DNA of 64,000 bases from Dictyostelium discoideum (GCA_000004695.1 CM000154.2:4576001-4640000); one strand, 5' to 3'. Shown: positions 19,608 through 37,720, counted from the stretch's first letter. Translations and numbers: made by a program. Notes: generated from the letters alone by a model not told the origin.

Positions 19608-20123
19608 CTTCCGCTCCTTAGCCAACGCTAACTTTTTTTTTTTTTTTTTTTTTTTTAGAAAAATAAAAATATAGTTATTGATGGTAGAACATTTAATTTA
19701 CAAATTTGGGATACAGCAGGACAAGAAAGATTTAGAACAATTACATCATCTTTTTATAGAGGAGCACATGGCGTTTTAGTTTGTTATGACGTAACAGATC
19801 AACTTACATATAATAACGTTAGATTATGGATGCAAGAAATTCAAAGATATGCAGTACTTGGCGTTAGTAGAGTTTTAGTTGGAAACAAATGCGATCTCGA
19901 AGATAGAAAATTGGTAAACACATCAATTGCAAGAGAATATGCCGATAGTCTTGGTATTCCATTCATGGAAGCTTCTGCTGCAACTGGTGTTAATGTTGAA
20001 GAGGCTTTCATGGCAATGGCAAATGAAATTTATAGAAATCATATGGGTGGTTCAAAACCTTCTGTTGTAAACCCAGGAAGTGGAGGTACCAGTAACACTG
20101 GTGGTAAAAAAAAATTTTGTTAA
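19212..20123 (+). CDS. Rab1-family small GTPase, at least 3 exons: join(19212..19281,19436..19483,19659..20123). The 5' end is unresolved.
   Basis: Exon A: (D)[22 protein letters not shown] (P-loop), GTATGT donor. Exon B: [22 protein letters not shown] donor. Exon C: [81 protein letters not shown], very similar to Rab1. Ends GGKKKFC*. The ATG at 19214 is out of frame by 1 nt with the P-loop exon. A TACTAAC (19122) and a TTTACAG acceptor (19205-19211) lie upstream. Confidence 0.7.
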
Positions 20124-23541: not shown

Positions 23542-27525
<3,984 letters not shown>

Positions 27526-27658
27526 AAACAAAAAAAAAAAAAAAAACAAATAAAAAATTTAAAACCTTTTTTTTTTTTTTTTTTTATTGGATTGATTATT
27601 GACCTACAATATAAACGCAACTCGTCTTTTATTTTATTAATTAAATTCTTAACACTAA

Positions 27659-27944
27659 TTAATAACTACAATTAGAGACATCTACACACCAACAAAATCT
27701 AATTTTTTTATTTCTTATTTCTTGTTGTCTAAAAACAACAGGATCACTTATAATATTTCCTTTATAAAATTGAAGTGCCAATCCAATACCTCTTATAAAT
27801 GATTCTTGAATATTTATTGATTCTTTAGCTGACGTTTCAAAATAATGAATCCTACAAAAATAAGGATTGCTATAATTCCCATTATTAATTTTGTCTTGTT
27901 GTTTTCTACACCATTCATCAATTTTTTCTTTTGAAATAATTTCA

Positions 27945-28025
<81 letters not shown>

Positions 28026-28586
28026 TTATTTTTATTATTTATTAAATCTATTTTATTTCCCAAGATAATTATTGGAACATTTACATAATTTGATGATAAT
28101 AAGAAATCATTTAACCATTTTTCAAGATTTTCAAATGATGTTAAATTATTTAAATCAAAACATAAAAAACAACAATGAGCACCTCTATAAAATATATTTA
28201 AAGGATAATTTATATTATTCATTTTATTTGGAATATCCCAGATCTATATTTTAATATATACATTTAAATATTTTTAATTAATAATATTTGTTTTTGTTAT
28301 TAAATTGTTAAAAAAAAAAAAAAAAAAAAAAAATACAAACATTTAATATTATATGTTGACGTTTGAAATCAATTTCTTTTTGGTGTAAATAGTCCATTGG
28401 AGTTTTATTTTCATATTTTTTCCCTAAAAAACTTTTAATAATAGAACTCTTTCCAACTCCAGAGTCTCCACCTACAAAAATCTAATTAAATTATTTATTG
28501 TTAGTATTTCAAGGTAATTTTTTTAAAAAAAAAAATAATAATAATAACAGTTTGGCAACCTTTAAATTTATTTTTTTTTCATCCAT
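27659..28586 (-). CDS. Rab-like GTPase paralog A, 3 exons: complement(join(27659..28243,28341..28481,28560..28586)). Switch II is degenerate.
   Basis: Exon 1 MDEKKINLK. Exon 2 IFVGGDSGVGKSSIIKSF.. (intact P-loop). Exon 3 begins IWDIPNKMNNINYPLNIFYRGAHCCFLCFDL.., so DTAGQE is replaced by DIPNKM. Then LGNKIDL..YFETSAKESINIQESF. TACTAAC lies 18 nt before the exon-2 acceptor. Exon-1 donor is GTTGCC (weak). A polyN insert is encoded by (ATT)n. Confidence 0.6.
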
Positions 28587-28999
28587 TATTTAATAGCTTT
28601 AAAAATATTTTATTCAATTGTTAGTTATTAAAATATTTTTTCTTTTTTTTTTTAAATTATTTATAAAAAAAAAAAAAAAAAAAAGAGATCAGGTTTCTCT
28701 GGTGTGAAAATCTCCAAAAAAAAAATAAAAAATGAAAATAAGAAAATTAAATAACTGGCATTAAAATAAAGCAATTTTCATTTCCCAAATGAGTTACTTT
28801 ATTAATTTTTGATAATTTTTAATTTTATTGTGAGAAGTATTATTAATATTGATATTAATGGACCAAATTTTTATTTTATACTTTTATTTTTGAATTTATT
28901 TAATTACTATTCATTACTATTAATTAAAAATTCGAGTGATTTACAATATCTTCTAATTATGGTTTATTTTTTTATTTTATTTTTTTTATTTTTTTTTTT

Positions 29000-29789
29000 C
29001 TAACAACAATATCCAGGTTTTACTTCTTGAAGTGAATCAATTGCAGGTGTGGTTATTGGTGGTTTTTGATTTTTATTATAATGTTCCAAAGCTAATTTAA
29101 GAGCAGCATTATATGATTCTGTAATATTTTGAGAAAACTTTGCAGATGTTTCAAAATAATGAACTCTATCAATAATTCCTTGATCTTCAATATTTTTACA
29201 CCATTGTTCAATTCTTTCTTTTGATATTGATTTATCAGTTCTTGGAATATCTTTTTTTGTACCTATTAAAACAAATGGAACTTTTCCAATACAGAACTTT
29301 CTAGCTTCGTCCATCCATTTATCAAGATTTTTAAATGATTTTTCATTGTGAATATCAAAACAAAGTGTATAACAATTTGACCAACGATAATAAATTGGGC
29401 TTAGGCCATTAAAACGTTCTTGACTACAGGTATCCCAAACCTTGTCATTATCATAATTATTATTATTATTATTATTTATTCCATTTTTTTTTTTTTTTTA
29501 ACATGTTGTTATTTATTCGTTTTTATGAGTTACAAACTTACATTTAAAATGACAGGTTCATTTTCAATGGTTAGGGTCTTTGAATAAAAAGATGGTGAAA
29601 CTGTGCACTCATTAATTTCATATTTTCCAGTAACAAAATTATTAAATACAGATGTTTTGCCTACATAACTGTCTCCAAGAGTAATAATCTTAAAAAATTT
29701 AAAAATAAATAGTTTAATTTTATATATAAAAAAATTAGAAATTATAAAAACTAATTAAATTATAATACCTTTAAACTTTTTTTACTCAT
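29000..29789 (-). CDS. Rab-like GTPase paralog B (G-type), 3 exons: complement(join(29000..29440,29542..29688,29769..29789)).
   Basis: MSKKSLK | [18 protein letters not shown]...EPVILN | [59 protein letters not shown] and GTAAGT donors. Switch II reads DTCSQE. C-terminal CC prenylation motif. Confidence 0.65.
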
Positions 29790-30074
29790 TTTACCTTTCA
29801 ATAACTTTTAAAAAAAAAAATAAAAAAAAAAAAAATAAATTAAAAAAAAAAATTAAAAACTCGCAAGAGAACAAAGATCTCTATTTTTTTTTTTTTTTTT
29901 TTTTTTTTGTTTTTATAAATAGAATTTTTACAATAGTGGTGGGAATTAGACAAAACTTAATTTTTTATACATTTTCAGTTTTTTTTATTTTTTTTCAAAG
30001 ATAACTATCCAAAAAAATGAATGTGTATATTCATAAATTTTGAAAATAATTTAATAATTTTGAAATGATTAAAT

Positions 30075-30114
<40 letters not shown>

Positions 30115-30123
<9 letters not shown>

Positions 30124-30770
30124 TGTTCCAACTTTGACTTCTTCCGGCGGACCAATTGGACGAATAATTGAGATATATTTAACTATACTATAATGTTCCA
30201 AAGCTAGTTTTGCAGCAACATTATATAATTCTGTAACATTTTGAGAAAGTTTTGCAGATGTTTCAAAATAATGAACTTTATCTATAATTCCTTGATCTTC
30301 AATATTTTTACACCATTGTTCAATTCTTGCCTTTGATATTGATTTATCAGTTCTAGGAATATCACTTTTTGTACCTACTAAAACAAATGGAATATTTCCA
30401 TAGCAGTACTTTATAATTTCATCCATCCACTTTCCAAGATTAATAAATGATTCTTCATTGTGAATATCAAAACAAAGTGTATAACAATTTGCACCACGAA
30501 AATAAGGTGGACTAAATGCTTGAAAACGTTCTTGACCACAGGTATCCCAAACCTAATACAATATAATTTATAATTAATAAAACAGTTTTATTTTATTTTT
30601 TTGAATGAATTATACACTTACCATTAAAAACACATGTTTATTTTCAACCTTTAATTCCTTTATAAAATAGTCAGGTCCAATTGAGGGTGGCCTATTATAT
30701 CGATATTCTCCATTAACATAATGATAAAAGAGAGATGTTTTACCAACATTACTGTCTCCAAGAGTTATAA

Positions 30771-30810
<40 letters not shown>

Positions 30811-30894
30811 AGAAAAAAAAAAATTTCAATAAAATAAGAAATTAATATATAATATATTAATCAATACCTTTAACATTGTTTTTTCTTCTTTCAT
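30115..30894 (-). CDS. Rab-like GTPase paralog C (G-type), 3 exons: complement(join(30115..30552,30622..30771,30868..30894)).
   Basis: MKEEKTMLK | [25 protein letters not shown] | [53 protein letters not shown]. Phases are consistent with the ORF-track frame. Confidence 0.65.
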
Positions 30895-30956
30895 TTTTAA
30901 ATATTATATTATATATTAATGATTAAGTTTAATTTTTAAAAAAAAAAAAAAAAAAA

Positions 30957-31160
30957 GGGTTTAAATGATATTTTTTATTTTTAATTGTTGAGAGAGCCAA
31001 GATCTCTTTTTTTTATTTACAAAATTTAGAAAAAAATAAAAATCTGAAATATTTGGAATGTTGTTTGGATATTTCTATTATTTTTAAAAATAGAAAACAA
31101 CACCCATGAAAATCATAATTTGAACTTTTATTATTATTATTATTATTATTTATTTTTAAA
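30957..31160. repeat. Conserved roughly 190-bp element; copies at 30957-31160, 33062-33250 and 35649-35850.
   Basis: gggtttaaatgatattttttatttttaattgttgagagagccaagatctc...gaaaacaacacccatgaaaatcataatttgaactttt recurs three times with over 90% identity. Each copy sits immediately 3' of an F-type gene and 5' of a G-type gene or its remnant. Confidence 0.8.
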
Positions 31161-31518
31161 ATTCTACCACAACCCTAATATCCCATTCGATGATGCAGGG
31201 TGGAAATATTTATTGAATTTTTCTGTTTATTTTTACACCATTGTTCGATTCTTTCTTTTGAAATTGATTTTTCAGTTCTTTCAATATCACTTTTTGTACC
31301 TATTAAAACAAATGGAACTTTCTCATCAACTAATGTATTTGCTTCTAATTCTTTTATCCAATAAATAAGATTATTAAATGATTGTTCATTATGAATACCA
31401 AAACAAAGTACACAACAATCTACATCTCTATAATATATTTTACTATCACCGAATGCACTACCATGTGTATTCCATAACTTTTCATTTTTATTGATTTATT
31501 ATTATTACTATCCATTTT

Positions 31519-31555
<37 letters not shown>

Positions 31556-31700
31556 CAAATTGGTACTTACTTGAAATGATACTGTTTCATTATCAATGAT
31601 TATCTCCTTGTAGTGAAAATCTAGTGCAATTGAGTAACCCCATTGAAAAATAGGTCTACCCATATATAATTCTTAATAATCGATAATTTACCCACCATTC
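31120..31700 (-). pseudogene. Rab-like paralog D: truncated, rearranged copy of the F-type gene.
   Basis: Nearly identical to 33260-33920 over exon 2 and the 5' half of exon 3. About 150 bp of the exon-3 3' part is deleted and replaced by unrelated sequence (aaccctaatatcccattcgatgatgcaggg...), and the frame is not maintained. Confidence 0.6.
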
Positions 31701-32061
31701 TATCACCAATTGTTATTATCTTGTAAAAAAAATGCATATGCTTTAATACTTATATCTGATTTTAATAAGAATTTTTTTTTTTTTTTTTTAAAATACCTTT
31801 AAAAGTTTTCTTTTATTATCCATCACTATTATCTGATTAATTTGAAACTTGAAAAAAAAAAAAAAAAAAAAAAAAAAAGTGAGAGAAAGAAAAGTAAAAA
31901 AAGTCAGAGTAAGAAAAGCATGCTTTTGAACTTTTTTTTTTTTATTTTTTTTTTTTTTTTGACCACAGAGAAAAAAAAAAGAAAAAAAAAATTTGGTTGT
32001 TCACCACCAACTTTTTGCTTCTATAATTTATTTTTTTAAAAAATCAATAATAATAATAATG

Positions 32062-32093
<32 letters not shown>

Positions 32094-32717
32094 TCAACAA
32101 CTTGATGATTTGATATTATTGTTATTTGATATTTCCAGTGTTGGATTTAATTTTGATTCATTTAATTTTTGCATTGAATTAAAATAATTTAAAGCAAACT
32201 TTGAAATGATATTGAATGGCTCTTTAATATTTTTTGAATTCTTTGCAGATGTTTCAAAATAATGAACTTTATCTATAATCCTTTGATCTTCAATATTTTT
32301 ACACCATTGTTCAATTCTTTCATTTGATATTGATTTATCAGTTCTAGGAATATCACTTTTTGTACCTATTAAAACAAATGGTGGTGATAATTTCTCACTT
32401 TCCAAACCATTCTCTAAACATTTTGAATGTAATTCCGTTATCCATTTATCAAGATTTTTAAATGATTCTTCATTATGAATATCAAAACAAAGTACACAAC
32501 AATTTGCATTACGATAGAAATGTCTATTTAAACTGGTAAATCTTTCTTGACCTGCGGTATCCCAAAAATGGTATCCAACAAGTTCATCATCGATCATTAT
32601 CTCTTTATAAAATAAATCAAAAGTTGATGGACAAGTATAAATACCAAATTTTCTACCTGCGAATTCATTAAATATTGCTGTCTTTCCAGAATTATAATCA
32701 CCAATCATTATTATCTA

Positions 32718-32767
<50 letters not shown>

Positions 32768-32856
32768 AAATTAAAAAATGTTAACTTTTATAGTATAATA
32801 TAAAAATAAAAATAAAAATCACATACCTTTAATTTCTTATTTGCTTTATATTCCAT
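32094..32856 (-). CDS. Rab-like GTPase paralog E (E/I-type), 2 exons: complement(join(32094..32714,32827..32856)). Canonical motifs.
   Basis: MEYKANKKLK | [90 protein letters not shown]. Ends ..SSSC*. GTATGT donor; acceptor AATAG at 32716..32715. Confidence 0.65.
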
Positions 32857-33259
32857 TTTTAAAAATATGTATGTATGTGTGTGTGAGATAAAAATAAAAT
32901 AAAAATAAAACCAATCAAGATTTTTTTTTTTTTTTTTTTTTGGGTTGTTTTTTTTTTTTTTTTTTTTTTTATTATTAATTTTTTTTATCTAAACATTATT
33001 TTTTGTTCATTCATTTTTAAATATTATATATAATAAAAAAAAATAAAAAAAATAAAAAAAAGGGTTTAATTATTTTTGATTGTTGAGAGAGCCAAGATCT
33101 CTTTTTTTTTATTTACAAAATTTGAAAAAAATAAAAATCTGAAATATTGGAATGTTGTTTGGATATTTCTAATTATTTTTAAAAATAGAAAACAACACCC
33201 ATGAAAATCATAATTTGAACTTTTTTTTATTATTATTATTATTATTTATTTTTAAAATC

Positions 33260-33721
33260 CTACCACCAACAAATTCCTTTTGGTTTTTCAGGTTCAATTG
33301 AAATATTTATTGAATTTTTCTGTTTATTTTTATATTGATTTAATGCTATTTTTACTATAGTTTCATAAGCTTCAATAATGTTTGTTGATAATTTTGCAGA
33401 AGTTTCAAAATAATGAATTTTTTCTTTTACAATACCTTGATCTTCAATTTGTTTACACCATTGTTCGATTCTTTCTTTTGAAATTGATTTTTCAGTTCTT
33501 TCAATATCACTTTTTGTACCTATTAAAACAAATGGAACTTTCTCGTCAACTAATGTATTTGCTTCTAATTCTTTTATCCAATAAATAAGATTATTAAATG
33601 ATTGTTCATTATGAATATTAAAACAGACTACACAACAATCTACATCTCTATAATATATTTTACTATCTTCATATGCACTACCATGTGTATTCCATAACTT
33701 TTTATTATTATTATCCATTTT

Positions 33722-33753
<32 letters not shown>

Positions 33754-34053
33754 CAAACCAAATTGGTACTTACTTGTAATGATACTGTTTCATTATCAAT
33801 GATTATCTCTTTAAAGTGAAAATCAAATGGAATTGAGTTACCCCATTGAAAAAAAGGTCTACCCATATAATTCTTAATAATCGATAATTTGCCAACCATT
33901 CTATCACCAATTGTTATTATCTTTTTTTTTTTTACATCATTGTTATGAAAAAAAAAAAAAAAATTGCATATGTTTTCTTATTAATATCTGATTTTAAAGA
34001 ATTATTTTTTAATTTTAAAAAAATACCTTTAATAGTTTTCTTTTATTATCCAT
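33260..34053 (-). CDS. Rab-like paralog F (F-type), 3 exons: complement(join(33260..33697,33774..33920,34027..34053)). P-loop and switch II are degenerate.
   Basis: MDNKRKLLK | [18 protein letters not shown] (GxxxxGK-L, the T/S is lost)..ETVSLQ | [27 protein letters not shown] (DTAGQE becomes NTHGSA)..[29 protein letters not shown] donor at 33773..33772 and acceptor AAAAAG at 33699..33698, so the track's MDNNNKK start falls inside the intron. Confidence 0.55.
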
Positions 34054-34326
34054 CACTATTTATCTGATTAATTTGAAATTTTTTAAAAAAAAAAAAAAGT
34101 GAGAAAGTCAAAAAATGAGCAGAAAAGTAGAAAAGCTTCAAACTTCTGTTTTTTTTTTCATCACACAACAAAAATAAAAAACCAACAAAAAAAAAAAAAA
34201 AAAAAAATAAAAAAAAAAAAAAATTTATTTACCAATCTTTCTTTGAAAATATTTTCAAAGTTGATAATAAAAAAAAAAAAAAAAAAATCATCATCATTGA
34301 TCAATTTATTTTAATTGGTAAAAAAA

Positions 34327-34410
34327 AGTGATATTCCAAGAACTGATAAATCAATATCAAATGGAAGAATCGAACAATGGTGTAAAAATATTGAAGATCA
34401 AGGAATTATT
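34327..34410 (+). pseudogene. Inverted fragment of a Rab-like gene (plus-strand [29 protein letters not shown]).
   Basis: Reverse complement of the conserved exon-3 segment found in paralogs E, G and I. Only about 85 bp, with no flanking exon. Confidence 0.6.
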
Positions 34411-34449
34411 GATATATATATTTTTTTTTTTTTTTTTTTTTTTTTTATT

Positions 34450-34640
34450 ATAAATATTTTTAAAGAAAGATTGTAATTTAATTTTAAAGTTGACGAGGTT
34501 GTTTTTCATATTCATGGGCTTGTAGGATCATTTCAAATTTACCAAATTCTATTTTACTAATAATGCTTCATGTTCTTGCCAACAATCAAAAATTTCTTTC
34601 CAGCTTCATCACCCAGTGTATTGACATTTTTCTTCTTTTA
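34450..34640 (-). pseudogene. Fragment of the HDDC2 gene (copy of about 37790-38000 with internal deletions) lying inside the Rab array.
   Basis: agttgacgaggttgtttttcatattcatgggcttgtaggatcatttcaaattt... is near-identical to agttgatgaggttgtttttcatattcgtaggcttgtaggatcatttcaaattt... in the intact gene. Two deletions; not translatable. Confidence 0.6.
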
Positions 34641-34751
34641 TTATTATGATTGATATTAATGGAGCAAATTTTTATTTTATTTAATAATTATTTATTACTA
34701 TTAATTAAATATTCAAGTGATTTACCATCATCTTCTAATTAATGGTTTATA

Positions 34752-34782
<31 letters not shown>

Positions 34783-34783
34783 A

Positions 34784-35606
34784 TTAACAACAATGTCCAG
34801 GTTTTACTTCTTCAAGTAAAACAATTGCAGGTGTAGTAATTGGTGGATTTTGATTTTTATTATAATGTTTGAAAGCTAATTTAGCCGCAGCATTATATGA
34901 TTCTGTAATATTTTTAGAAAGTTTTGAAGATGTTTCAAAATAATGAACTTTATCTATAATTCCTTGATCCTCAATATTTTTACACCATTGTTCAATTCTT
35001 GCCTTTGATATTGATTTATCAGTTCTAGGAATATCACTTTTTGTACCTATTAAAATAAATGGAATACTTTCAAAACAGTACGTTTTAGTATCGTCCATCC
35101 ATTTTTCAAGACTGTCAAATGATTTTTCATTATGTATATCAAAACATAGTGTGTAACAATGTGCACCACGATAATAAGCATAACCTAATGAATGAAAACG
35201 TTCTTGACCAAATGTATCCCAAACCTAATATATTATAATTATTTTATTTTTTATTATTATTATTATTTTTTTTTTTTTTTTTTTTTTTTTTTTCAATTTA
35301 CCACTTACCATCATAGACACATGCTGATTTTCAATCATTAGTTCCTTTGAACAAAAATCAATTGAGCATGACCTATGATATATAAATTTCCCATACATAT
35401 AATTATAAAAGAGAGATGTTTTACCAACATTACTGTCTCCAAGAGTTATAACCTAAAAATAAACAAAAATAAAAAAATATAATAAAAAAAAGAAAAAAAA
35501 AAAGAAAATTAATTTTAAAAATAAATAAAAATAAGAAAAAAAAAAAAAAAAGAAATTAATATATACTTATTTACAATACCTTTAACATTATTTTTTGTTC
35601 ATTCAT
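34784..35606 (-). CDS. Rab-like GTPase paralog G (G-type), 3 exons: complement(join(34784..35224,35309..35452,35580..35606)).
   Basis: MNEQKIMLK | [25 protein letters not shown] | [59 protein letters not shown] and GTAAGT donors. Confidence 0.65.
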
Positions 35607-35823
35607 TTTTAAATATTATATATAATAAAAAAAAAAAAAAAAAAAAAAGGGTTTAAATGATATTTTTTTTATTATTTTTAATTGTTGAGAGAGCCAAGAT
35701 CTCTTTTTTATTTACAAAATTTGGAAAAAAAAAAAAAAAAAAAAAAAATTTGAAATGTTGTTTGGATATTTCCAATTATTTTTAAAAATAGAAAACAACA
35801 CCCATGAAAATCATAATTTGAAC

Positions 35824-35855
<32 letters not shown>

Positions 35856-35868
35856 TATTTTTAAAATC

Positions 35869-36491
35869 CTACCACCAACAAATTCCTTTTGGTTTTTCAG
35901 GTTCAATTGAAATATTTATTGAATTTTTCTGTTTATTTTTATATTGATTTAATGCTATTTTTACTATAGTTTCATAAGCTTCAATAATGTTTGTTGATAA
36001 TTTTGCAGAAGTTTCAAAATAATGAATTTTTTCTTTTACAATACCTTGATCTTCAATTTGTTTACACCATTGTTCGATTCTTTCTTTTGAAATTGATTTT
36101 TCAGTTCTTTCAATATCACTTTTTGTACCTATTAAAACAAATGGAACATTTTCATTAAATAATGACATCCAATGATTAAGATTATTAAATGATTGTTCAT
36201 TATGAATATTAAAACAGAGTACACCACAATCTACATCTCTAAAATATATTTTACTATCATCGAATGCACTACCATGTGTATTGAAAAGCTTTTTATTATT
36301 ATTATTATCCATTATAATTTTTTTTTTTTTTTTTTAAACCAAATTGGTGCTTACTTGTAATGATACTGTTTCATTATCAATGATTATATCCTTAAAGTAA
36401 AAATCTAATGGAATTGAGTTACCCCATTGAAAAAAAGGTTCACCCTTAAAATTCTTAATAATCGATAATTTACCAAGAAAAGCAGAAAAAC
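35869..36491 (-). pseudogene. Rab-like paralog H (F-type): P-loop destroyed and exon 1 absent; probable pseudogene.
   Basis: Exon 3 (35869..36288) is intact and F-like ([27 protein letters not shown]..). Exon 2 encodes ..[15 protein letters not shown].. (the G-x4-GK P-loop is gone). No MxxKxxLK exon-1 homolog lies upstream. The upstream sequence (36575-36760) is a copy of the E/I-type 3' end. Confidence 0.5.
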
Positions 36492-36539
36492 CTTCAAAAA
36501 AAAAAAAAAAAAAAATTAAAAAATCAACTGGTTGGTATT

Positions 36540-36575
<36 letters not shown>

Positions 36576-36671
36576 TATTGGTCACCACCAGGTTGTTTCT
36601 TCTGTAATTTATTTTTTTATTATTATTACTACTATTATTATTAGATATTTCCAGTTTTGTAATTAATTGAA

Positions 36672-37402
36672 TCATTTAATTTTTTGTATTGAATTAGAAT
36701 AATTTAAAGCAAGCTTTGTAATGGTATTGAATGGCATTATAATATTTTGAGAAAGTTTTGCAGATGTTTCAAAATAATGAACTTTATCAATAATTCCTTG
36801 ACCTTCAATATTTTTACACCATTGTTCAATTCTTTCATTTGATATTGATATATCAGTTCTTGGAATATCACTTTTTGTACCTATTAAAACAAATGGTGGT
36901 AACAACTCCATATTTTCCAAACCGTTCTCTAAACATTTTGAATGAAATTCGTTCATCCATTTATTAAGATTTTTAAATGAATCTTCAAAGTGAAGATCAA
37001 AACAAAGTACACAACAATTTACATCACGATAGAAAGATTTATTTAAATTGGTGGTAAATTTTTCATGACCGGCAGTATCCCAAATATTGCATCCAACAAG
37101 TTCATTATCAACCATTATCTCTTTATAAAAGTAATCAAAAGTTGATGGATTTGTATAACTACCAAATTTTCTGCCTACAATTTCATTAAATATTGCTGTC
37201 TTTCCAGATCTATAATCACCAAGCATTATTATCAAAATAAAAAAAAAAAAAAAAAAAATGTTAAAACATATTTTAAATTAAAAATATGTTTTACTTTTAT
37301 ATAAAATAAAAATAAAAATAAAAATAAAAATAAAAATAAAAATAAAAATAAAAATAAAAATAAAAATCACGCATACCTTTATTTTCTTATTTGCTTTTTC
37401 CA
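36672..37402 (-). CDS. Rab-like GTPase paralog I (E/I-type): complement(36672..37226), with a possibly orphaned 5' exon at 37376..37402.
   Basis: [32 protein letters not shown] (catalytic Gln is His)..[27 protein letters not shown]. Ends ..IQKIK* with no C-terminal Cys. An exon-1 homolog (MEKANKKIK + GTATGC) is present, but the acceptor that reads TAG|ATAATAATG in E reads TTG|ATAATAATG here. The (AAAAAT)n repeat at 37300-37350 is intronic or upstream. Confidence 0.55.
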
Positions 37403-37720
37403 TTTTTAAATTAATATGTATTTACGCATGTGTATGTGTGTGAGAGAGTTGAAAATAAAATAAAAATAAAACTAAAAAAATCAAGATTTTTTTTTTTTTT
37501 TAGATATTTTTTTTTTTTTATTTATTTATTTATTGTTGAAAATAAAAATTTAGGTTAATTAACACCTAAATTTTTATTTTTTTTTATTTTTTTCTTTTCA
37601 CATTTAAATTAAATTAATATTAATTTATTCAAATTCTATTTTTGTATTTACAATTTTATCTAAATTTTTTTTTTTTTTTTTTTTCTATTATTTATTATTA
37701 TTATTTTAAAAATTATTTAT

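Follow-up and report, generated by a model that had tools for sequence, protein, structure and literature searches.

A young Rab7-derived tandem gene family in Dictyostelium discoideum with stepwise loss of catalytic residues in the RabK lineage

In guanosine triphosphatases (GTPases) of the Ras and Rab type, the Ser/Thr of the P-loop and the Asp of the DxxG motif hold Mg2+, the Gly of DxxG senses the gamma-phosphate, and the Gln is catalytic. The standard mutants of Rab7 are T22N, which is inactive, and Q67L, which is GTPase-dead; Rab7 T22N and Ras S17N are engineered low-affinity P-loop mutants that hold on to exchange factors. Rnd and RhoH are GTPase-deficient Rho proteins that carry Ser or Asn in place of the catalytic Gln. 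In Entamoeba histolytica, EhRabX3 and EhRabX10 are described as 'pseudoRab' proteins with a P-loop nucleoside triphosphatase fold and non-conserved G motifs (PMC8514894). For Dictyostelia, the survey by Forbes et al. 2021 reports extensive amplification of individual Rab genes in all genomes, D. discoideum above all (PMC8923023). This study concerns one such amplification, located at 27659-37403 in a window of D. discoideum DNA (the whole stretch of 64,000 nucleotides that was analysed, GCA_000004695.1 CM000154.2:4576001-4640000), where an array of Rab7-derived genes includes a lineage, RabK, that has lost catalytic residues step by step.

The array lies on the minus strand and consists of nine co-directional Rab-like genes or relics (A to I; Table 1) and two extra Rab fragments, as obtained from spliced exon models built with canonical GT-AG introns on the minus strand of 27500-37700. 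The nine had been proposed by a first-pass annotation of the same DNA, and the models bear them out. Six of the predicted proteins are exact D. discoideum AX4 entries (RabM, RabL, RabN1, Q1ZXB8, RabK2, and RabN2), which rules out chance for the array. The region is the annotated AX4 cluster rabN2-rabK2-DDB_G0294571-rabK1-rabN1-rabK3-rabL-rabM-(probably) DDB_G0290827, a young Rab7-derived tandem family, in a window of 16-29% G+C with long poly-Asn/Gln open reading frames (ORFs). The same genes stand in the D. discoideum-only Rab list of Forbes et al., whose tables give rabL, DDB_G0294571, rabM, rabN1, rabN2, rabK1, rabK3, rabK2, and DDB_G0290827 consecutively, then rabO and rabP, place the array genes between rab7B and rab32D in the order of Table S1, and assign them no orthologues in D. 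purpureum, D. lacteum, P. pallidum, and D. fasciculatum, in which rab7A and rab7B do have orthologues (PMC8923023). The array is already named, curated, and published as a D. discoideum-only amplification, and is not a discovery. In the searchable text and supplements of that survey, nothing was found on triplet structure, loss of catalytic motifs, gene conversion, or orthologues in Dictyostelium citrinum, D. dimigraforme, and D. firmibasis, and a literature search by rabK and rabN names and DDB_G identifiers returned no Dictyostelium paper on the function of array genes, the matches to 'RabK1' being Entamoeba genes or unrelated. As far as these searches reached, the stepwise K-lineage series and the conversion tract presented below are undescribed but modest additions.

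The Ras profile (Pfam PF00071) recognises A, B, C, E, F, G, and I at 85-144 bits against a cut-off of 21.6, and searches with F, E, C, and A allowed the family, initially called Rab-like, to be narrowed to specifically Rab7-derived. For F, E, and C, the top sequence hits in the PDB were Rab7/Ypt7 (E-values from 1e-31 to 1e-37), with Rab7 as the best solved relative of gene C (2e-37) and gene E (2.5e-37); the lead of Rab7 over Rab9 spanned 2 to 8 orders of magnitude in E-value, and the lead over other Rabs was larger still. The best matches of A beyond its own lineage were likewise Rab7/Ypt7, save for an unnamed metagenome protein and a paralogue. In a protein search with RabK1 (gene F), the relatives recovered were confined to strains of D. 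discoideum and to D. cf. discoideum, D. citrinum, D. dimigraforme, and D. firmibasis, and beyond this species complex identity was at most 37%, with Rab7 or Rab1 as the named matches. On these matches, the members are classed as Rab7-derived paralogues and not as Rab7 orthologues. They resemble Rab7/Ypt7 and Rab9 in their best sequence and structure matches, the G-domain fold, the ETSAK form of G5, and the CC end of the L-type members; RabM, moreover, is ticked in the macropinosome proteome column of Table S3 of the survey (PMC8923023), macropinosomes being a Rab7-type compartment. They differ from Rab7 in being 30-37% identical to it and confined to the D. discoideum species complex, in a G4 motif of the form TKxD (save in A), in odd C-termini (a single Cys, ICWW, or no Cys), and, in several members, in missing switch residues.

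Comparison with sister species reveals the origin of the array. In both D. citrinum (locus L002) and D. firmibasis (L004), the syntenic interval, bounded by an HD-domain gene and by a large polyglutamine (poly-Q) gene of the opposite strand, contains a single gene of each of the N, K, and L types; in D. dimigraforme (L003), N and K are adjacent and the L-type gene lies ~5 kb further on. AX4 has the order I-H-G, then F-g', then E-D-C, then B and A, and in self-comparison of the array the block made up of the 3' end of D, gene C, and the sequence upstream of C matches that made up of the 3' end of H, gene G, and the sequence upstream of G at 80% over 1.2 kb. In the same comparison, g' and F match the start of G plus H at 89% over 0.9 kb, D matches F at 92%, and E matches I at 85%. 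Synonymous divergence per site (dS) between D. discoideum paralogues is 0.15-0.32, which is at or below the between-species dS of the flanking HD-domain gene (0.28-0.50), so the copies are younger than the separation from D. citrinum and D. dimigraforme; the flanking gene places D. firmibasis as the outgroup. The ancestral state was one N-K-L triplet between the HD-domain gene and the poly-Q gene, which was then multiplied in D. discoideum by tandem segmental duplication. The single syntenic triplet of the sister species and the low dS of the paralogues thus agree with the local, recent expansion that had been proposed.

When read from an alignment to a Rab7 reference, the K orthologues form a graded series. 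The K protein of D. firmibasis has the P-loop GDRGVGKS, the G3 motif WDSHGQQ, and a CC end; that of D. dimigraforme has GKL in the P-loop, WDTHGNV in G3, and an ICW end; that of D. citrinum has GKL, WSIHGNA, and ICW; and that of D. discoideum has GKL, WNTHGSA, and ICWW. In all four species, K has a shortened switch II and keeps [GS]TKxD and ETS[AS]K. Relative to Rab7, RabK1 shows Leu for Thr/Ser in G1, Asn for Asp and Ser for Gln in G3, and a 2-residue gap in switch II; three of the four residues named above (the P-loop Ser/Thr, the DxxG Asp, and the Gln) are missing, and the Gly of G3 is present. The progressive motif loss across species supports the ongoing loss of catalytic function suggested at first pass. 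The D. dimigraforme coding sequence was assembled by hand, as the first intron of this gene (L003 10027-10120) starts with GC and not GT.

Like EhRabX3 and EhRabX10, these proteins belong to an amoebozoan lineage-specific Rab expansion in which the fold is kept and the G motifs have diverged. Unlike them, they show no close sequence relationship to the Entamoeba proteins, RabK deviates in G1 and G3 whereas EhRabX10 deviates mainly in G3-G5, and the decay of K can be traced stepwise between sister species. RabK further combines, in nature, the kind of lesion seen in Rnd and RhoH with that of Rab7 T22N and Ras S17N, while those precedents are Rho-family or artificial proteins.

Motif loss is not restricted to K. 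The lineage of gene A keeps a canonical P-loop, NKxD, and SAK, lacks DxxGQ, and ends in a RFCWCxxVxxCxY tail common to D. discoideum and D. citrinum; G3 reads WDIPNKM in the D. cf. discoideum orthologue, which is 71% identical, and WEMPSNQ in that of D. citrinum, which is 49% identical. The invariant Gly of G3 is replaced by Ser in RabM and in D. firmibasis L (WDNVSQERF; L004 11059-11829) and by Met in D. citrinum N (WDTAMQERF; L002 8912-9644), and this switch-II Gly has been replaced repeatedly and independently in the clade. RabN2 has His for Gln and no C-terminal Cys in two strains.

The pairwise Nei-Gojobori ratio of non-synonymous (dN) to synonymous divergence (omega) was used to assess selection, a comparison that the first-pass annotation had called for. 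Between K orthologues omega is 0.28-0.49, with all bootstrap confidence intervals below 1; among the three bearers of GKL it is 0.28-0.32 and no bootstrap replicate reached 1, which indicates that constraint persisted after the P-loop lesion. The N-terminal part of K (P-loop, switch I, and interswitch) is its most constrained part, with a dN of 0.09 and a dS of 0.49 versus D. citrinum. N (0.31-0.55) and L (0.32-0.54) types are no better constrained than K, and the flanking HD-domain gene has an omega of 0.08. Protein evolution in the family as a whole is 4-6 times faster than in this neighbour, yet stays below neutrality, in line with the rapid divergence claimed for it (0.28-0.55 against 0.08). 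Omega is 1.0 between F and H, and 0.66-1.0 among paralogues within the genome. The AlphaFold2 model of RabK1, the one member modelled, has a predicted local distance difference test score of 86 and a predicted template modelling score of 0.83, dips only at the two switches, and shows the expected strand and helix order of the six-stranded, five-helix G domain; in a Foldseek search with this model, Rab7 came out on top with template modelling scores, normalised to the target, of 0.84-0.87 (0.81-0.87 for Rab7 and Rab9 together). Judging by the omega of K, the constraint on the P-loop region, and the RabK1 model, RabK1 and the A lineage behave as conserved pseudo-GTPases and not as decaying DNA, and it is plausible that the K and A lineages are pseudo-GTPases. 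F, H, and A had all been regarded as such: this reading fits F, with its Rab7-like predicted fold and low omega between orthologues, and A, whose degenerate G3 is shared with D. citrinum, but H is a dead copy.

Retention of G4 (GTKSD, or NKID in A) and G5 (ETSAK) across the array, which had been noted at first pass, is real but has more than one source. Among the N, L, M, and G subtypes of D. discoideum, dS in the G4-G5 region is 0.04-0.24, as against at least 0.28 elsewhere and mostly at least 0.5 between subtypes, while N and L differ by a G4-G5 dS of 0.8-0.9 in D. firmibasis and D. dimigraforme. The nearest neighbours of a gene are of the same subtype in G1-G4 and of the same species in G4-G5. 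Gene conversion has homogenised a G4-G5 tract of ~150 bp across the N, L, and M subtypes, so that the retention of G4 and G5 in these types is partly concerted evolution. K has a G4-G5 signature of its own, IVKEKIHYF, and is 91% identical there to D. firmibasis K; its retention of the motifs therefore reflects selection and not conversion. Within K, the 3' halves of rabK1 and rabK2 share an exact identity of 312 bp (33227-33538 versus 35836-36147), whereas their 5' parts are 86-89% identical, which points to very recent conversion of a live with a dead copy.

Several members are damaged in AX4 and intact in other strains. In D, exon 2 carries a 2-nt insertion, G5 and helix 5 have been lost through a 123-bp deletion, and the 3' end is scrambled; the 148-aa model deposited for AX4 rabK3 (P0029) works around these lesions, and another strain has an intact-looking K3 of 216 aa (P0011). 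H lacks exon 1 and the first part of exon 2, in agreement with the earlier view that its P-loop is gone, except that the 'GKL' codons of the relic exon 2 are still present; strain ACTFIR has an intact K2 of 198 aa (P0021). At the g' site, ACTFIR carries a gene of 190 aa (L005 14175-14915), and the window lacks ~0.98 kb of ACTFIR sequence; the extra G-type gene of ACTFIR has Asp for the Gly of G3. Intron 1 of I lacks ~17 bp, among them the acceptor AG, which strain ACTFIR and the paralogue E retain, and N2 of ACTFIR is spliced and encodes 196 aa, also with His for Gln and without the Cys. H, D, and g' are simply broken genes in AX4, and I is probably broken. The first intron of rabN2 (37308-37367) contains a 10-unit (ATTTTT)n repeat on the gene strand that is expanded relative to ACTFIR and rabN1.

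The two strains also differ in the arrangement of the array. The inverted 114-bp Rab fragment and the HD-gene fragment (34301-34571) were not found at this position in strain ACTFIR, and their use as proof of a third full N-K-L unit was rejected on this ground. The HD fragment at 34462-34571 is probably the relic of a tandem-duplication junction, the duplicated unit presumably starting inside the HD-domain gene, and 34301-34571 as a whole is probably the scar of such a junction and a lost N-type copy. One-to-one orthology of K copies between AX4 and ACTFIR was likewise rejected: F of AX4 is closest to the gene in the K3 position of ACTFIR, which indicates that K copies are mosaics, and strain pairs were for this reason not used for dN/dS. 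By eye, array proteins differ by ~6% between AX4 and ACTFIR, as compared with 1.6% (dS 0.04) for the adjacent HD-domain protein, and the array is far more polymorphic between strains than its flank. For one strain, a fused L+M protein is deposited.

Overall, it is probable that a Rab7-derived triplet has been multiplied, with birth and death of genes and conversion between them, and that K and A are kept as non-cycling, Rab7-shaped proteins. The N-K-L triplet was duplicated in tandem in D. discoideum, after which birth and death left deleted, truncated, frameshifted, and splice-site-less copies. From their motifs, RabN1, RabL, and DDB_G0294571 are predicted to be ordinary switches between guanosine triphosphate and guanosine diphosphate, and two members would be impaired ones: RabM, whose switch-II Gly is replaced by Ser, and RabN2, which has His for the catalytic Gln and lacks the Cys for lipidation. 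RabK1 would lack normal Mg2+-dependent nucleotide binding and would not switch, and the product of gene A would bind nucleotide without switching. The most likely role of the K and A lineages would be that of locked, Rab7-shaped, nucleotide-insensitive binding proteins, selected for an endolysosomal role and not for catalysis; the record of RabM in the macropinosome proteome fits an endolysosomal compartment. It is unlikely, though conceivable, that RabK, stripped of the P-loop hydroxyl and of the Mg2+-holding and catalytic residues, is kept by selection as a natural built-in dominant-negative Rab7, a nucleotide-insensitive sponge or decoy for Rab7-type partners such as an exchange factor, effectors, or bacterial effectors that target Rab7-like proteins.

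The motif-degenerate members, rabK1 and gene A included, might instead all be dying pseudogenes whose intact ORFs reflect their youth, in keeping with four demonstrably broken AX4 loci and with the high omega among paralogues within the genome. Forbes et al. state of the Arf family that many of the amplified GTPase genes show poor or no expression (PMC8923023). A search of public assemblies for transcripts, as intron-less contigs encoding RabK1, returned a genome assembly only, but even the uninterrupted 147-aa ORF of H has no Logan or transcriptome source, so this search is uninformative. The pseudogene explanation nevertheless seems rather unlikely, since K ORFs and exon structure are intact in four species at a dS of 0.3-0.5 from each other, since the three GKL-bearing orthologues have the low omega given above and the degenerate P-loop/switch-I region has accumulated little dN for its dS, and since the ICW(W) end of K and the RFCWCxxVxxCxY tail of A are conserved between species. 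That K-type and A-type proteins are working GTPases using non-canonical residues is improbable as well: the guanine-recognising G4 [NT]KxD and the G5 ETSAK are under selection in K and are not borrowed by conversion, K keeps the Gly of G3, A keeps its canonical P-loop, and an Entamoeba Rab without a canonical motif is reported to be active (PMC8514894), but RabK1 is without three of the four key residues and has a shortened switch II, and A is without Gly and Gln in both species. Lastly, the odd motifs would be artefacts if the exon models were wrong and the right splicing restored the canonical sequence. The deposited models do conflict (213 versus 203 aa for rabK1, contrived models for rabK3 and rabK2, and the fused L+M protein). 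This explanation is almost certainly incorrect, given that GKL is located midway through exon 2 and NTHGS three codons after the start of exon 3, that the introns are rich in A/T homopolymers and yielded no alternative exon, that the independent annotations of four species agree on structure and motif positions, and that six models exactly equal deposited proteins. Splicing that restores canonical motifs had been named at first pass as a possible refutation; a search for it found no in-frame alternative acceptor, and the sole AG near the start of the second exon of I gives a stop.

A number of points weigh against the view of K and A as conserved, non-cycling proteins. The omega values come from pairwise estimates in a very AT-rich genome, where gene conversion can distort them, and values of 0.3-0.5 are high, indicating weak constraint across the family. 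We take A to be DDB_G0290827 and G to be DDB_G0294571 from gene order and accession. The deposited 213-aa rabK1 model has an extra 3' intron and another C-terminus than the 203-aa model used here. Among the matches of the protein searches, no array protein had a Logan or transcriptome source, and the macropinosome record of RabM is the one trace of expression. Loss of activity in K and A is suggested by motifs alone, and some Rabs with divergent motifs are reported active, among them the atypical EhRabX3, as cited in PMC8514894.

Table 1. Rab-like genes, relics, and fragments of the array (positions in the window, spans from spliced models or alignments)
Feature	Position	Strand	Description
Gene A, probably DDB_G0290827	27659-28586	-	three exons, 250 aa; GDSGVGKS, NKID, ETSAK, G3 WDIPNKM
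Gene B = rabM (Q54FK8)	29000-29789	-	three exons, 202 aa; DTCSQE (invariant Gly to Ser), CC end; exact match
Gene C = rabL (Q54FK7)	30115-30894	-	three exons, 204 aa; canonical G1-G5 (DTCGQE), CC end; exact match
Gene D = rabK3, pseudogene here	~31164-31823	-	from alignment with F and H; matches deposited 148-aa AX4 model P0029
Gene E = rabN1 (Q54FK5)	32094-32856	-	two exons, 216 aa; GDYNSGKT, WDTAGQERF, single terminal Cys; exact match
g', exon-1 remnant of a G/L-type gene	32989-33014	-	gene body deleted in AX4
Gene F = rabK1 (Q54FK4)	33260-34053	-	three exons, 203 aa; GDRMVGKL, WNTHGSA, TKSD, ETSAK, ICWW end
Inverted Rab G4-G5 fragment	34301-34414	+	114 bp; 90-93% identical to a segment in B, C, E, G, and I (self-BLAST)
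Fragment of 3' part of HD-domain gene	34462-34571	-	110 bp; 88.7% identical to 37796-37908
Gene G = Q1ZXB8 (DDB_G0294571 by gene order)	34784-35606	-	three exons, 203 aa; DTFGQE, CC end; exact match
Gene H = rabK2 (Q1ZXB7)	35869-36492	-	5'-truncated relic; annotated product is the 147-aa ORF 36312-35869
Gene I = rabN2 (Q54FK2)	36672-37403	-	DTAGHE, no C-terminal Cys; annotated 184 aa from an internal Met

Across the models, the first exon encodes 7-10 aa, and complete G1 GxxxxGK[ST], G3 DxxG(Q), G4 [NT]KxD, and G5 SAK motifs occur only in E, C, and G; F, H, and D deviate by GKL and NxxGS, A by the absence of DxxG, B by DxxS, and I by His for Gln. All motifs quoted in the first-pass annotation (DTAGQE in E, DTAGHE in I, DTCSQE in B, WDIPNKM in A, and GDRMVGKL and NTHGSA in F) were recovered in the alignment, as were the CC ends of B, C, and G. 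The ICWW end ascribed to all F-type genes is found in F and H; D, with its insertion and deletion, has no in-frame ICWW. E ends in a single terminal C, A in CSY, and I has no Cys. Rab proteins are geranylgeranylated at a C-terminal Cys motif (CC, CXC, CCXX, or CXXX), of which B, C, and G show CC, and the single-Cys ends may be lipidated as well. E and I, described earlier as fused into one exon, have indeed lost intron 2, and still have one intron after a first exon of 9-10 aa; the N-type gene has two introns in D. firmibasis and D. dimigraforme. As to RabF motifs, Pereira-Leal and Seabra reportedly defined IGxDF, KLQIW, RFrsxT, YYRGA, and LVYDIT as Rab-specific. Assessed by eye on the alignment, the L and N types keep WDTxGQERF and a [FY]YRG-like motif, K keeps IPxDF, LQLW, and YYRD without RF...T, and A is without most of switch II.

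Gene A carries a poly-Asn insert of ~30 residues, with a run of ~25 AAT codons at 27948-28022 between G4 and G5, and ends in RFCWCVDVSNCSY. Its orthologues in D. cf. discoideum and D. citrinum have a much shorter run, and the exact model sequence of gene A was not found in the protein collection searched. The 203-aa model of F equals KAM9948362.1, and the UniProt model of rabK1 has 213 aa. In D. citrinum, D. dimigraforme, and D. cf. discoideum, ICW(W) forms the very end of the orthologous protein, which favours the 203-aa model. The UniProt/AX4 model splices out the ICWW stop (33260-33290 down to ~33195, minus strand) and ends in ...GIFQIMIFMGVVFYF; the same ending was chosen for a K3 model in another strain. 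At the end of intron 2, the K-type copies have an in-frame ATG reading MDNNN(N)KK (33700-33718, 36294-36312, and ~31500-31518, minus strand), which echoes the MDNKRKLLK of exon 1 and is the start chosen by annotators for the 147-aa RabK2 product. Outside the array, 19830-20123 on the plus strand is the last exon of a separate canonical Rab gene with an NKCD motif and a KKKFC end; at the syntenic position, the loci of D. citrinum and D. firmibasis have a Ras/Arf-family gene.

Copies that are broken in AX4 and intact in wild strains matter to users of the rabK2, rabK3, and rabN2 annotations, and gene conversion within the array can mislead phylogenies of these Rabs. A Rab7-derived triplet has been multiplied in one species complex, and its K lineage has lost catalytic residues in ordered steps while purifying selection on it matched that on its canonical neighbours in the array. 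With intermediates in sister species and the ease of manipulating Dictyostelium, the array offers a compact natural series from a switch GTPase to what would be a non-switching binding protein. If RabK were indeed a decoy of Rab7, it would tune how phagosomes or macropinosomes mature in the D. discoideum species complex, and the series from the near-canonical D. firmibasis protein through D. dimigraforme and D. citrinum to D. discoideum would capture the birth of a pseudoenzyme.

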